DNA from: Escherichia virus TH40 | Sequence record: MT446411.1 | Reading direction: 5' to 3' (one strand) | Length of the DNA: 64,000 nt | Shown: one piece after another, positions 1 through 7,641 of the stretch | Numbering within the stretch: position 1 is the stretch's first letter | Layout: the number at the start of each line of letters is the position of its first letter | The notes under the pieces: generated by a model | Seen by the model: the letters and a program-made list of their open reading frames with translations, nothing else | Database searches by the model: none | Told to the model about the DNA's origin: nothing | Program-made: the position numbers and the translations under genes

Positions 1-70
1 CATTTTGTACGTTATGTGCAAAACCACCTACTGCACGAGCTTGACTATTAAAAGTTTTAGGACCGTTCAT
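1..70 (-). CDS. hypothetical protein, N-terminal fragment (gene continues beyond window start)
   Basis: ATG at 68-70 on reverse strand preceded by GAGGAAAATATT RBS and an early-type promoter (98-127); reading frame open to position 1. Confidence 0.3.
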   Translation of the reverse strand, partial: MNGPKTFNSQARAVGGFAHNVQN

Positions 71-129: not shown

Positions 130-1089
130 TTATTTTGAAAAAGGACGAATTAAATGTTGGTTAGCCTTGAAACGTTTAACATAGTCTTCGCGACCCAGGG
201 TGTTGTACATATTCACTACTTCCTGGTAATGTTCCCAGGCATACTCACGAAACCATCCAGAAGTAATGGAGGTGCAGACTTTTTCCAGAGCAATATGGAA
301 GCTCACGGATGGAGAGATACTAAACTCGTTAGGAACCTGCGAACGCTCCAGAGCGAGCACACATGCTTCTTCATAAACCCCTGCCAGTTTAATAACATCA
401 GGGAGTGCTTCAAATTTTTCACGCGAGGTCATGACTTCCGAATCATCCTTCATATAGAACTTATATGCAGGCTTATCAGCAAGCGCCACGGCCTCGTGGA
501 TGGAGTCATGGTCAAGGGTATAGATTGTATCATTAAAGAAAGTTTTCTTGCCCACGTCTAGTTTAGGGTGGCTATATGACAGTGTTTCTGCCTGACGTTG
601 TAACATAATTTTCTGCAGTTCATCATTAAGAACAACACCCTTATTACGAAGGTAATTAATATGGCTCATGGTCTTCAGGAAGAATGGATTGTTCTTCAGG
701 TAACGATGAGACAATTTAATTGCCAGACAAATATCAGGGGTCGCCCAATAGAAACCTGTAAGACGGTCTTTCTTAATATGATTTTCAGCGTATTTCAAGA
801 GACGATAACTTGAGGTGAAATCTTCATCTTGAAGCTCACCAGTAATTTCTCGTACGTTGGTCAGGGCACGGACAATATAAGCTTCAAAATAGGTTTCTTT
901 GCCATTGTACATACATTTAAAAGCTTGGACATCAGGGTTATCCACAGGAACATGAGCACCGAACATACGTGCTTTAAAGTGGTTCCATGAGCCCTGGTCA
1001 GCGATGAAGTCCCAATCAGAGTTTTCAATTTTCTGACTTTCAATCAGACCAGCGTTATGTAATGCACGAGAACCAATAACTAACATCAT
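130..1089 (-). CDS. hypothetical protein (320 aa), N-terminal GS...DxD motif reminiscent of Pol-beta-type nucleotidyltransferase
   Basis: Long reverse ORF 130..1140; start moved to internal ATG-ATG at 1089 which has GAGGAAAATATT RBS; N-terminus MMLVIGSRALHNAG...DWDFIAD. Confidence 0.5.
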   Translation of the reverse strand: MMLVIGSRALHNAGLIESQKIENSDWDFIADQGSWNHFKARMFGAHVPVDNPDVQAFKCMYNGKETYFEAYIVRALTNVREITGELQDEDFTSSYRLLKYAENHIKKDRLTGFYWATPDICLAIKLSHRYLKNNPFFLKTMSHINYLRNKGVVLNDELQKIMLQRQAETLSYSHPKLDVGKKTFFNDTIYTLDHDSIHEAVALADKPAYKFYMKDDSEVMTSREKFEALPDVIKLAGVYEEACVLALERSQVPNEFSISPSVSFHIALEKVCTSITSGWFREYAWEHYQEVVNMYNTLGREDYVKRFKANQHLIRPFSK

Positions 1090-1108
1090 AATATTTTCCT
1101 CAGATAAC

Positions 1109-1339
1109 TTAAATTTCAGCAGCAGAGATATTAGATTCATCTATCATCTCGGAGGCGGACCCCTTAACGATAGGAACCAATTTGCCATAGAGGTCTTCAT
1201 TATAAGGGTCGTTGATACAGTGCGCATCTTCAAAACGAACACCGTAATCAGACTTCTTATAAACGAGACCGTAAATCTTTGTAAACTTAGCGCGACTAAT
1301 TTTTACGGGCTCATCAGCCATTGGAGCATAATACCACAT
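1109..1339 (-). CDS. hypothetical small protein (76 aa)
   Basis: Reverse ORF with GAGGAAAATATT RBS, early-type promoter upstream at 1368-1397. Confidence 0.45.
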   Translation of the reverse strand: MWYYAPMADEPVKISRAKFTKIYGLVYKKSDYGVRFEDAHCINDPYNEDLYGKLVPIVKGSASEMIDESNISAAEI

Positions 1340-1442: not shown

Positions 1443-1670
1443 TTATTTTCCTAACGAAATACGAGTAGGTTTTTTACCGAAATATTCTTCATAGGAACCA
1501 TCTAAACGGCCCGCTTTAGACCGACAGTACGAATCATACTTTTTGTAATAAGTCAACTCTGTATTGTAACGTGGATGTCTATCAGCCATAATAATACTTA
1601 ACGGCCAACCTTTGGCGTAATCACGAAGACCATTTATTTTACGAATATATCTTTTCTTTAATTTTAACAT
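1443..1670 (-). CDS. hypothetical basic small protein (75 aa)
   Basis: Reverse ORF in co-oriented array; start overlaps upstream gene stop. Confidence 0.4.
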   Translation of the reverse strand: MLKLKKRYIRKINGLRDYAKGWPLSIIMADRHPRYNTELTYYKKYDSYCRSKAGRLDGSYEEYFGKKPTRISLGK

Positions 1671-1888
1671 GAGCTCGGATACCAGATTTTACCATCCGGG
1701 TGAGCAACAAAGGTGCGTCCAGCTTCTTCACCATAACAAGAGCTATTCAACCAGTCTTCAAGACGAACTTCACCATCATAATCGTCGAGCTCAATACCGA
1801 AATCTTGGGCAGAAGCCATATCTTTAACTTTCTTATACAGCGCAGCCAGTTCAAGAGCTGCTTTTTCTAATTCATTAATATCAGACAT
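1664..1888 (-). CDS. small acidic protein, diverged member of tandem paralogue family (C-terminus ...WYPSSC)
   Basis: Reverse ORF; N-terminal helical segment and C-terminal Ser-rich Cys end resemble the three neighbouring paralogues. Confidence 0.5.
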   Translation of the reverse strand: MSDINELEKAALELAALYKKVKDMASAQDFGIELDDYDGEVRLEDWLNSSCYGEEAGRTFVAHPDGKIWYPSSC

Positions 1889-1897
1889 TTTTATTCC

Positions 1898-2095
1898 TTA
1901 GCATTCGTAAGAGGAGGACACCCAAGAGGTACCACTAATAGTAATACAACCGTTATAAAGCGTGATATGTCGTTCTAGGTCACGAACACCGTCGATATAG
2001 ATATCAGCTTCTTCTCGTTCTTCTTTACAAATCTGGATAACGTTTTCAATAGCTGCGGCTGCAGTACGGATTGCACAATCTAATTCACGAGACAT
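1898..2095 (-). CDS. small protein, tandem paralogue family member (C-terminus SWVSSSYEC)
   Basis: Reverse ORF; 3' end DNA near-identical to 2105 and 2396 genes (plus strand ...AGAGGAGGACACCCA...). Confidence 0.55.
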   Translation of the reverse strand: MSRELDCAIRTAAAAIENVIQICKEEREEADIYIDGVRDLERHITLYNGCITISGTSWVSSSYEC

Positions 2096-2104
2096 AATAA
2101 TTCC

Positions 2105-2386
2105 TTAACATTCAGAAGAGGAGGACACCCAACCACCTTTTTCCAGGTCAGTTGTATAGTCATGTTGGTTAACGATAGCGTATTGGGCTTCACCGTAGTT
2201 TTCCCAATGAGCAAGGTCAGCTTTCAGGGCGCCAGGAGAATAATAGTCACCGCCCATACCGCGAGCAGGGTATATATTAAAATGAGTCTCATATTTGTTT
2301 GCAATTTCCTCGGCACGACGAATAGCTTTATGGATATCATTTACTGCGTTGGCCAGTTCTTTATTTTTACTGTAATCGTTCATCAT
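2105..2386 (-). CDS. small protein, tandem paralogue family member (C-terminus GWVSSSSEC)
   Basis: Reverse ORF; conserved C-terminal motif and conserved 3' DNA. Confidence 0.55.
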   Translation of the reverse strand: MMNDYSKNKELANAVNDIHKAIRRAEEIANKYETHFNIYPARGMGGDYYSPGALKADLAHWENYGEAQYAIVNQHDYTTDLEKGGWVSSSSEC

Positions 2387-2395
2387 ACCATTTCC

Positions 2396-2686
2396 TTAAC
2401 ACATCTCAGAAGAGGAGACCCAAGCACCAACGGTAACAACACCATTTTCAACCCGACCGCCATTGGCTTCAATATGATGGGTAAACCATTCAGAGCATTC
2501 ATAACCAACTGGATGATATGTACGGCCGGTGCCGTAATCACCAGTGCTGAATTCGATACCATATTCATCTGCGATTTCTTCACAGTGTTTTTCAATTTCA
2601 GAGGTCTTATTTAGAAGAGAATAGATAGCTTTTTCTGCAGATTTCTCATCATAATACTTGGGGATAGCAATTTCAATTTTATTCAT
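2396..2686 (-). CDS. small protein, tandem paralogue family member (C-terminus AWVSSSEMC)
   Basis: Reverse ORF; conserved C-terminal motif and conserved 3' DNA. Confidence 0.55.
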   Translation of the reverse strand: MNKIEIAIPKYYDEKSAEKAIYSLLNKTSEIEKHCEEIADEYGIEFSTGDYGTGRTYHPVGYECSEWFTHHIEANGGRVENGVVTVGAWVSSSEMC

Positions 2687-3036
2687 GATTTACATTCCTT
2701 AATAAAGGTTTCAAGGTCATTACGTTTTGTTTTGTCTAGGAACTTATTATACTCAGCCATTGCTGAAGCATATCTCTTATATATGGGAGCATTCAAGGCG
2801 TTTGTATAACAGATATCATACACAACCGGGATAAAATAGGCCACAACAGCCGGAGCAATTATCATAAAGAAGCCCATCTCAATAGGCATGACTCCCTCGA
2901 TTGCAGCCATAACCGTGGTCATTACCAGACCAACCAGACCACCGAGCATGGCAGTGACAATCCCTAATAATAAATTGGCACCAATATCATATTCAGCCAA
3001 TTGATAAACATGTGATGCAAGACTAGGCCGTTCCAT
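2683..3036 (-). CDS. small membrane protein (two predicted TM helices)
   Basis: Reverse ORF; start set at internal ATG 3036 with AAGGAGG RBS; hydrophobic stretches LLLGIVTAMLGGLVGLVMTTVMAAI and FFMIIAPAVVAYFIPVV. Confidence 0.5.
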   Translation of the reverse strand: MERPSLASHVYQLAEYDIGANLLLGIVTAMLGGLVGLVMTTVMAAIEGVMPIEMGFFMIIAPAVVAYFIPVVYDICYTNALNAPIYKRYASAMAEYNKFLDKTKRNDLETFIKECKS

Positions 3037-5011: not shown

Positions 5012-5443
5012 TTAAATTTCAAATTCTTTGCGGAAGTTGGAAGCATAAGATTGAACTGATGCTTTGTTGAATCCAAACTCACGCACAATCATATCAATAA
5101 CAGCTCTGCGAGCAGCACCATTAGACATATTAACAGTTTTGAACATATCATAGCATAAATCTTTGTTGCTCATACCGGAGCGTTTAGGTGCCTTACGCTC
5201 AGCTTTTGGTTCAGCTTTAGGAGTAGGTTTAACCTGTCCATCATTCAGACCTTTAAAAATTTTACCCGCCAGAGTTGCCAGTTTAGCAGCTTCGCCACGA
5301 GTGATACCAAATACTGCCGGGTTAAATGAAATACCTTCAGCTGTTAAACGTTTGAAGAACATACGCGCTGCGGATTGCGCTTCAGCTTCAGAAGAGTTGT
5401 TTAATGCCAGTTTAACGTACTTAATCAGTTTTGAAGTTTTCAT
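5012..5443 (-). CDS. hypothetical protein, paralogue A (C-terminal AARRAxID...VQSYASNFRK domain)
   Basis: Reverse ORF, start at internal ATG 5443; C-terminal 35 aa conserved with 5527..5952 product; promoter 5486-5514. Confidence 0.5.
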   Translation of the reverse strand: MKTSKLIKYVKLALNNSSEAEAQSAARMFFKRLTAEGISFNPAVFGITRGEAAKLATLAGKIFKGLNDGQVKPTPKAEPKAERKAPKRSGMSNKDLCYDMFKTVNMSNGAARRAVIDMIVREFGFNKASVQSYASNFRKEFEI

Positions 5444-5485
5444 TTTATTATCCCGTTTGTTTATTTGGTAACTCAGTATGGGATA

Positions 5486-5514
5486 ATTATACACTATCCC
5501 ACCTGGAAGTAAAA
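5486..5514 (-). promoter_or_regulatory. early promoter (-35 GTTTTAC, -10 TATAAT) with conserved leader
   Basis: Reverse-strand GTTTTAC-N17-TATAAT; -10 inside GGGATA...TATCCC palindrome. Confidence 0.5.
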
Positions 5515-5526
5515 CACTTTTCTCAA

Positions 5527-5952
5527 TTATTTTTGAGCTTTGCGGAAGTTAGAAGCATAAGACTGAACAACAGTCTTTTTGATATCATGGGTAGTAACCA
5601 GAACATCAATCAGAGCGCGGCGAGCTGCATTATCATTCATATCAATTTCTGCAAATGCCTGGAAGCAAATGTCACGGGCGTTACCAGATTTGGACTGGAT
5701 TTTTTCTTCTTTAACTTCTTCAATTGGGAATTCAATCATTTCAGCTTGGATTAATTCAATGATGGACTCTTTTGACTGTTTGGTGTTTACCTTCAGTTCA
5801 GAATTAAGGGACTTAGCGATGGCAACAATCTGGGTTGAAGTCAGATGGATAAGGGCATCTTCACGAATGCAGATTTCACATACTTCGTCAGCAACCATTT
5901 TGTTAGTGATGCGGGTAACAGAAAATGCAGAGGTCAGGGTCAGAAAGTTCAT
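5527..5952 (-). CDS. hypothetical protein, paralogue B (C-terminal AARRAxID...VQSYASNFRK domain)
   Basis: Reverse ORF with GGAGAA RBS; promoter 6003-6032. Confidence 0.5.
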   Translation of the reverse strand: MNFLTLTSAFSVTRITNKMVADEVCEICIREDALIHLTSTQIVAIAKSLNSELKVNTKQSKESIIELIQAEMIEFPIEEVKEEKIQSKSGNARDICFQAFAEIDMNDNAARRALIDVLVTTHDIKKTVVQSYASNFRKAQK

Positions 5953-7358: not shown

Positions 7359-7434
7359 TGGTCGAGACAGTAGGAATCGAACCTACGACCCAGGACTTAG
7401 AAGGTCCTTGCTCTTCCTTCTGAGCTATGCCTCG
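7359..7434 (-). tRNA. tRNA-Arg (anticodon UCU), CCA encoded
   Basis: Hand-folded cloverleaf: acceptor CGAGGCA/TGTCTCG, D stem GCTC/GAGC, anticodon stem AGGAC/GTCCT with loop CTTCTAA, T arm GTAGG-TTCGATT-CCTAC, discriminator A, CCA. Confidence 0.85.
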
Positions 7435-7567: not shown

Positions 7568-7641
7568 TGGTGGCCCTGGGTGGAATCGAACCACCATCCA
7601 GCGATTATGAGTCGCTCGCTTGACCGTCCAGCTACAGGGCC
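7568..7641 (-). tRNA. tRNA with CAU anticodon (Met, or Ile as in T4 convention), CCA encoded
   Basis: Hand-folded cloverleaf: acceptor GGCCCTG/CAGGGCC, anticodon stem AGCGA/TCGCT with loop CTCATAA, T arm GGTGG-TTCGATT-CCACC, discriminator A, CCA. Confidence 0.8.

Follow-up and report, generated by a model that had tools for sequence, protein, structure and literature searches.

The window analysed here is a 64,000-nucleotide stretch of the genome of Escherichia virus TH40 (MT446411.1). Close to its start, on the minus strand, lies a gene for a predicted nucleotidyltransferase (NTase) of the Pol-beta type, preceded by four copies of a small acidic protein, denoted family A below (1664..2686), and then by two unrelated small open reading frames (ORFs). 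The DNA is ~92% identical to that of Gaprivervirus phages (T4-type, Straboviridae), for example, MN01, vB_EcoM_RZ, and SP18, and the MN01 orthologue of the NTase is a 99.4% identical protein. The gene is located in the e-segB accessory region. In RB69, a cassette (ORF132c-139c) that includes the homologue of this gene, ORF134c, is inserted between e.3 and e.2; these two genes abut in T4, and therefore, the cassette is absent from T4 at that site. At the syntenic position, this bears out an earlier note on this DNA, made from the sequence alone, in which the protein was not recognized as any T4 gene product. The cassette genes are packed tightly on one strand, each with its own Shine-Dalgarno sequence. 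The features of the NTase gene and its product are the following (aa, amino acids).

130..1089, minus strand: NTase gene (DUF7277-DUF7275 protein), from ORF and translation; stop codon at 130-132; homologue of RB69 ORF134c
1097..1101, minus strand: Shine-Dalgarno sequence GAGGA, 7 nt upstream of the ATG at 1089, read from the sequence
775..1089, minus strand: predicted N-terminal alpha/beta nucleotidyltransferase domain (aa 1-105)
1069..1074, minus strand: motif hG[GS], G6-S7, from conservation in 147 sequences
1009..1017, minus strand: motif [DE]h[DE], D25-W26-D27, putative metal-binding carboxylates 1 and 2, from conservation in 147 sequences
883..885, minus strand: E69, candidate third catalytic carboxylate in strand 64-73, from conservation in 147 sequences
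133..747, minus strand: predicted C-terminal all-helical domain (aa 115-319, DUF7275)

The ATG at 1089 is assigned as the start because all homologues begin with M(M)L(V/I)IGS and because of the position of the Shine-Dalgarno sequence; given these homologues, a longer ORF from the ATG at 1140 was rejected as the gene. The N-terminus quoted in the earlier note, MMLVIGSRALHNAGLIESQKIENSDWDFIAD, is correct, and some of the accompanying figures have to be amended: the protein consists of 319 aa plus the stop codon rather than 320 aa; only 10 residues, not 15, separate ...HNAG from DWD; and 17 residues lie between G6-S7 and D25, one beyond the limit of the pattern hG[GS]-x(9-16)-DhD from which the note had proposed an NTase.

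Nucleotidyltransferase signature and viral distribution of the enzyme family

The Pfam domains DUF7277 and DUF7275 cover aa 2-101 (E-value (E) 4e-26) and aa 120-305 (E 1e-75) of the protein, respectively, and in PHROGs, it belongs to the function-less entry phrog_2141 (PHROG 2141). Judged from these matches, this is an ordinary full-length member of the DUF7277/DUF7275 family. As a bare pattern, the NTase motif is weak evidence: it appears by chance in the first 45 aa in 0.4% of the shuffles of the query and anywhere in the protein in 4.3%, and is also present in 5 other window ORFs of at least 100 aa. What takes the motif beyond chance is its conservation across 147 aligned sequences, namely, the query and 146 homologues, each representing a separate cluster at 50% identity. 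G6 and D27 are present in all 147; S7 is retained in 143, with G in 3 more; position 25 is D in 145 and E in 2; and position 69 is E in 131 and D in 15, the lone exception apparently reflecting an alignment shift. The spacing between G6-S7 and D25 varies from 10 to 28 residues among the homologues, with a mode of 15. Together with F68-E69-A70, which lies in the predicted strand 64-73 and conforms to h[DE]h, these residues make up the full hG[GS] / [DE]h[DE]h / h[DE]h signature of Pol-beta-type NTases. In the predicted model (all structural statements here rest on predicted models), the N-terminal alpha/beta fold is superposable on solved NTases. The call of a Pol-beta-like NTase thus holds up, with the triad G6-S7/D25-x-D27/E69 kept in 146-147 of the 147 sequences. 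A different fold or the loss of the catalytic acids among homologues, which the note had named as grounds for abandoning the call, were both looked for, and neither was found.

Profile searches point in the same direction. In a Pfam scan of 144 family members, 16 matched AbiEii (PF08843, that is, DUF1814) at E<=1, the best match (P0354) scoring 32.7 bits against the curated cut-off of 22.5 and aligning exactly on the G-S...DxD segment; weaker matches were to DUF6036, DUF2204, and DUF4269, which are other NTase families. The window protein itself shows no PF08843 match at E<=10, no profile match to RlaP (PF10127) or PolyA_pol, and no meaningful match in NCBIfam or PADLOC. PDB sequence searches, whether started from the protein alone or from three family profiles, returned only chance matches (photosystem PsaB, a zinc finger, a designed TIM barrel). 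The cGAS/DncV-like fold with an extended helical spine that characterizes CD-NTases and cGAS-like enzymes was not found. From the conserved residues and the predicted fold, the protein is very probably an active Pol-beta-type NTase.

The C-terminal helical domain is more conserved than the N-terminal domain, with K125, H128, K139, H194, D195, H198, E240, E241, E248, R249, S277, G278, and R281 invariant, and has no solved structural relative. The possibility that this domain is an HD-domain phosphohydrolase was not supported: no H...HD...D metal-binding motif on an HD fold was found. R281-x5-H287, which resembles the Rx4-6H motif of HEPN domains, is not conserved, the consensus at position 287 being N.

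The enzyme family is large, with 2061 clusters at 90% identity and 1606 representatives at 50% identity (E<=1e-3), and is represented in 731 of 50,697 phage records. These include T4-like phages of enterobacteria, Aeromonas, and Acinetobacter, RB69-like and rV5-like phages, Phapecoctavirus, Otagovirus, a Ralstonia phage, and actinophages; predicted structures of proteins from giant viruses of eukaryotes (Sylvanvirus and Satyrvirus) also match the family. Among 185,579 bacterial and archaeal species, with one genome per species, only 29 loci were detected, most of them on contigs of metagenome-assembled genomes (MAGs) or in actinobacterial regions that also contain phage-type replication genes (primase-, helicase/RecA-like- and metallophosphoesterase-like ORFs). 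Thus, the enzyme family is essentially viral.

Several variants were encountered. The Sylvanvirus (BFVD A0A3G5AJ90, 508 aa) and Satyrvirus (A0A3G5AE53, 571 aa) homologues are longer DUF7275 proteins with extra regions. One homologue (P0272, 418 aa) carries an HNH_3/NUMOD4 homing-endonuclease domain, and others are split into DUF7277-only and DUF7275-only ORFs (BFVD J7I4W1 of IME13, 168 aa, and A0A142IE91 of KIL2, 117 aa), which suggests insertion of mobile endonucleases into the NTase gene. A divergent cellular subfamily of ~340 aa, from chromosomes of beta- and gammaproteobacterial MAGs (loci L115, L116, L118, L119, and L120), retains the C-domain motifs and has a degenerate DxD (WDLW/WDIW); in 4 of these 5 loci, a TPR-like protein of ~480-520 aa is encoded next to the enzyme, and in L119, it is found ~3.4 kb away on the opposite strand. 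The GenBank record of an Acinetobacter phage homologue calls it a 'DefenseFinder protein', a label that PADLOC did not reproduce.

Arrays of small acidic proteins next to the enzyme gene

We surveyed the neighbourhoods of 92 loci, which fall into 21 lineages at 60% enzyme identity; ORFs were called, and all neighbours were clustered without prior expectation, so that the lineage counts given below depend on our own ORF calling and clustering. One family of 60-100 aa proteins, family A (PHROG 899, likewise function-less), came out far ahead of all other neighbour families, with matches to its hidden Markov model (HMM) in 13 lineages and members found by inspection in 2 more. All 168 HMM matches are on the same strand as the enzyme gene, and 164 of them are upstream of it; each locus contains 1-6 copies, the nearest at a median distance of 584 bp from the enzyme gene and, often, only 4-81 bp away. 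The proteins are acidic, with a median isoelectric point (pI) of 4.4 and a net charge of -9, and consist of an N-terminal helix followed by ADEHG-x-F and, often, YGMGG-x-Y. The most conspicuous feature is the C-terminal tail, with the consensus G-G-W-x-S-S-S-x-x-C-COOH: of the 142 unique sequences, 139 end exactly in Cys, and among these 139, W is present at -7 in 118, S at -4 in 127, and S at -3 in 118. Family A has no Pfam relative, and the PDB profile search produced only coiled-coil and designed-helix noise; our literature searches yielded no paper on small phage proteins with a C-terminal cysteine. The window contains four copies, the third of which is not reached by the family HMM.

2396..2686, minus strand: family A copy 1, 96 aa, ends ...GAWVSSSEMC (family HMM E 6e-29; phrog_899 E 1e-22; no Pfam match)
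2105..2386, minus strand: family A copy 2, 93 aa, ends ...GGWVSSSSEC (family HMM E 1e-28; phrog_899 E 2e-20)
1898..2095, minus strand: probable divergent family A copy 3, 65 aa, ends ...TSWVSSSYEC (W/S/C tail in the alignment; phrog_4882)
1664..1888, minus strand: family A copy 4, 74 aa, ends ...KIWYPSSC (phrog_899 E 6e-10; tail motif in the alignment)

Four lineages that lack family A, namely, the actinophages ClubL, NiceHouse, and BillNye and the roseophage DSS3_VP1, encode a short form of the enzyme (~250-275 aa), in which the N-terminal domain is cut down to ~50 aa and IGS...KDxD is retained. Directly downstream of the enzyme gene, these phages carry 1-4 tandem copies of another acidic protein, family B (96-156 aa, pI 4.0-4.7), with the motifs GGEGxGD and G[WY]YxS[WY]xGxxWDG...TV[YW]. 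The same arrangement, a short enzyme with family B downstream, is found at all 15 actinobacterial chromosomal loci; family B is present, too, at 3 loci from proteobacterial MAGs, one of which (L108) has the copies upstream of the enzyme gene. Examples in the survey are the following.

L006:3600-4797; L011:4599-5638; L007:3899-4234; L008; genome loci L098-L117: family B

Families A and B show no detectable homology to each other (hhalign probability 0.3%), have no Pfam or PDB relative, and are unrelated to any known antitoxin. In total, an array of small acidic proteins, from one family or the other, accompanies the enzyme in 19 of the 21 lineages; in one of the two partnerless lineages, the locus begins just 353 bp upstream of the enzyme gene.

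Two family B loci stand out. In Nocardia ninae, a 394-aa protein (P0267, L112:7806-8990) joins a short-form enzyme to a family B domain, which could be a true fusion or the result of a lost stop codon; the use of this gene fusion as a Rosetta stone was dropped, a single case being too thin. On a phage-like contig binned with Caulobacterales (L108:4728-6440), three copies of family B and the enzyme gene follow a gene that, judged only by the appearance of its N-terminal sequence, resembles nicotinamide phosphoribosyltransferase.

Possible functions of the enzyme and its small partners

Our leading guess is that the small acidic proteins either are nucleotidylated by the enzyme or exert control over it. 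Beyond the NTase fold, the catalytic motifs, and the gene linkage, we infer catalysis, a protein acceptor, and a biological role in host takeover or counter-defence. Under the reading that we favour, the enzyme would be a catalytically competent, Mg2+-dependent NTase of an AbiEii/MenT (DUF1814)-like branch of the Pol-beta superfamily that binds a nucleoside triphosphate with Mg2+ through G6-S7, D25, D27, and E69 of the N-terminal domain. K125 and K139 would contact the phosphates, and the invariant Lys, His, Asp, Glu, and Arg residues of the C-terminal domain would hold the triphosphate and the acceptor. A nucleoside monophosphate (NMP) would then be moved to a hydroxyl lying in the cleft that the C-terminal domain helps to form, most likely, a Ser of the family A tail G-W-x-S-S-S-x-x-C, with the small proteins as substrates. 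Their N-terminal helix would serve as a docking element, and the variable middle part would diversify the host targets bound by the modified forms, so that the enzyme and the tandem small acidic proteins would be the two halves of a conserved viral two-component cassette.

We put the probability that the small proteins are NMP acceptors of the enzyme, via Ser of the invariant tail, at roughly one in three (0.35). The arguments are that a short terminal motif which stays invariant while the rest of the paralogues diversifies resembles the recognition site of an enzyme, that Pol-beta NTases naturally attack hydroxyls, and that there is a precedent for an NTase nucleotidylating its neighbour, the type VII toxin-antitoxin system MntA-HepT (MNT-HEPN), in which MntA modifies HepT on a side-chain hydroxyl (PMC7641770). 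The two systems are alike in that a minimal NTase is encoded beside a small protein; the analogy is one of mechanism only, given that the partners in the phages are neither HEPN proteins nor homologous to HepT. A scan of the proteins of both small families, and of the ORFs on either side of the NTase gene in the window and in MN01, gave no HEPN match.

A number of observations weigh against a protein acceptor. For MenT1, MenT3, and MenT4, the closest structural relatives, the substrates are tRNA 3' ends, and for ANT(2'') and LnuA, small molecules; in neither case are they proteins. Families A and B are not homologous, and family B lacks the terminal Cys, so that a single shared acceptor site is a conjecture. 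Small proteins encoded upstream of MenT-type NTases are antitoxins or regulators, as in the case of MenA1 (PMC10435456, PMC11375011), and by analogy, this precedent fits an inhibitor as well as a substrate. In the window and in other T4-like phages, 1-2 unrelated small ORFs intervene between the array and the enzyme gene; 2 of the 21 lineages have no partner family; the nearness of the invariant C-domain residues to the catalytic triad is presumed; and our literature searches retrieved no paper on DUF7275, DUF7277, PF23940, PF23942, phrog_2141, or phrog_899.

The main rival scenario, which we regard as a tentative possibility, is a MenT/AbiEii-like enzyme that adds nucleotides to the 3' ends of tRNA or other RNAs, thereby shutting down or reprogramming host translation or excluding competitors, with the small acidic proteins acting as antitoxin-like regulators or pseudo-substrates. 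They would bind the positively charged face of the active site as MenA1 does with MenT1; the 68-aa MenA1 regulates or blocks MenT1 (PMC10435456, PMC11375011). The enzyme works like, and is distantly related to, the DUF1814/MenT/AbiEii NTases. We do not file it as a member of DUF1814 because the profile match is indirect, the equivalences of motifs III and IV are tentative, the antitoxin partner is absent, and there is a large unique domain. Sequence identity to MenT1, MenT3, MenT4, and AbiEii (PF08843) is ~10%, and the window protein falls below the Pfam and PADLOC AbiE models. The Ser/Thr phosphoacceptor located two residues before the first Asp of the DxD in MenT1 and MenT3 is missing, the position being usually occupied by Pro (consensus RxPxDxD). 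Candidates for the Lys of motif III (K189 in MenT3, K137 in MenT1) are, from their conservation, the invariant residues K125, which belongs to the first helix beyond the sheet, and K139. The Asp of motif IV follows the Lys by 15-22 residues in those enzymes (D211 in MenT3, D152 in MenT1), whereas no invariant acid is present 15-25 residues after K125, and the distance from K125 to the invariant D195 (with D193) is 70 residues. The C-terminal domain of ~200 aa, with a dozen additional invariant polar residues, has no counterpart in the MenT structures. No AbiEi/MenA-like antitoxin gene is found among the neighbours, where families A and B, which are homologous to no known antitoxin, occur instead. 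Moreover, antitoxins do not typically come as arrays of 2-6 diverged paralogues that share an invariant terminal tail, and, unlike MenT and AbiEii, the family is almost exclusively viral.

The vicinity of RNA-processing genes brings up repair of RNA, in which an NTase similar in function to RlaP or to CCA-adding enzymes would, along with the phage RNA ligase and Pnk, restore tRNA or other RNA ends damaged by host anticodon or acceptor-stem nucleases. In Ralstonia phage RSP15, the NTase gene is immediately upstream of an RNA ligase gene, with a phosphatase-annotated gene 0.9 kb upstream; in DSS3_VP1, it is 1.2 kb from Rnl2 and a metallophosphoesterase, and in BillNye, 2.2 kb from Pnk. Genes for tRNAs are located 1.1-1.2 kb away in ClubL and NiceHouse and within 3 kb in 6 of the 21 lineages, and the locus in the window itself belongs to the e-segB/tRNA region, where tRNA-Arg and tRNA-Met genes are found at a distance of 6.3 kb. 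RlaP likewise is a phage Pol-beta NTase found near RNA ligases, and both enzymes occur in the same genomes, as exemplified by NiceHouse (gene 182); however, the two share no sequence match, and a ligase gene is adjacent to, or within 1.2 kb of, our NTase in 2 lineages only. This linkage is loose, restricted to a minority of lineages, and far weaker than that with the small proteins (19 of 21); in large phages, such genes are found together in accessory regions anyway, and RNA repair offers no explanation for the partner arrays. We consider a role in RNA repair unlikely. Highly unlikely, in our estimate, is a transferase directed at a metabolite, an antibiotic-like compound, or a defence signalling nucleotide, in the way that ANT(2'') and LnuA modify drugs. 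The minimal NTases ANT(2'')-Ia (AadB), LnuA, JHP933, and TM1012 are single-domain proteins of 150-225 aa, with antibiotics or unknown compounds as substrates, and possess neither a DUF7275-like domain nor partner arrays. The degenerate DxD (WDLW) of the divergent proteobacterial chromosomal subfamily would fit an inert scaffold that retains an NTase-like fold; for a dead enzyme, the essential invariance of the catalytic residues over 147 sequences of the viral family is unexpected, which makes this explanation extremely improbable.

A more ambitious form of the acceptor reading, which we find rather unlikely, is a new phage protein-modification system, in which nucleotidylation of the tail Ser would yield either a stable conjugate or an activated Ser and, as the product, diversified effectors for host takeover or counter-defence. 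In such a system, the activated Ser could eliminate to dehydroalanine, and capture by the terminal Cys would then form a lanthionine-like ring.

In our literature searches, we found no earlier description of the residue-level NTase assignment, the AbiEii/MenT link, or the module of enzyme and small proteins with the Cys-terminated tail. A fold and a near-invariant catalytic site are now assigned to the large, function-less family DUF7277/DUF7275, a relative of the tRNA-poisoning MenT/AbiEii toxins of bacteria that is carried mainly by viruses. The conserved module, in which the enzyme is joined by tandem small acidic proteins whose invariant tail ends in Cys, makes a 'hypothetical protein' experimentally tractable. 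Should the small proteins be substrates that become modified, phages would possess a new type of protein modification; should they be regulators, the module would be a virus-borne MenAT-like system, with a bearing on the control of host translation and on phage-defence biology.

Expression signals and neighbouring genes

The remaining features of the cassette and its surroundings are the following.

2746-2772, minus strand: T4 middle-promoter-like site, MotA box TATGCTTCA, 12-nt spacer, TATAAT (pattern match only)
1443..1670, minus strand: 75-aa ORF, phrog_7065, between the family A array and the NTase gene
1109..1339, minus strand: 76-aa ORF, phrog_3723, immediately upstream of the NTase gene
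1..70, minus strand: start of a 228-aa gene (homologue of RB69 ORF132c, phrog_1843), downstream of the NTase gene and cut by the window edge

The MotA-box-like site is contained in the 3' end of the e.3-like gene, ~60-85 nt before the first gene of the family A array, and a pattern check of the sequence revealed no late-promoter motif at the cassette. Early or middle expression is plausible, judging from these two observations and from the orientation and tight packing of the genes.

The MN01 orthologue of the 76-aa ORF has no Pfam match. The downstream 228-aa protein, whose MN01 orthologue is encoded at L003:6020-6706, has no Pfam or PDB match either; it contains a GYHHDD...WHTG pattern that resembles the HxD...H of 2-oxoglutarate/Fe(II) oxygenases, and one GenBank record labels it 'phytanoyl-CoA dioxygenase'. 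This oxygenase-like gene was rejected as a partner of the NTase, being linked to it in 2 of the 21 lineages and lacking Pfam or PDB support.

Farther upstream of the NTase gene, at a distance of 6.3 kb, the window encodes tRNA-Arg(TCT) (7359-7434) and tRNA-Met(CAT) (7568-7641), both on the minus strand, and the same tRNA pair is present at the syntenic site in RB69. The two adjacent minus-strand ORFs at 5012-5494 and 5527-5952 (160 and 141 aa) are paralogous, with a common C-terminal region ending in ...VQSYASNFRK; their relatives are annotated variously as 'H15 domain' or 'rho-N domain' proteins.

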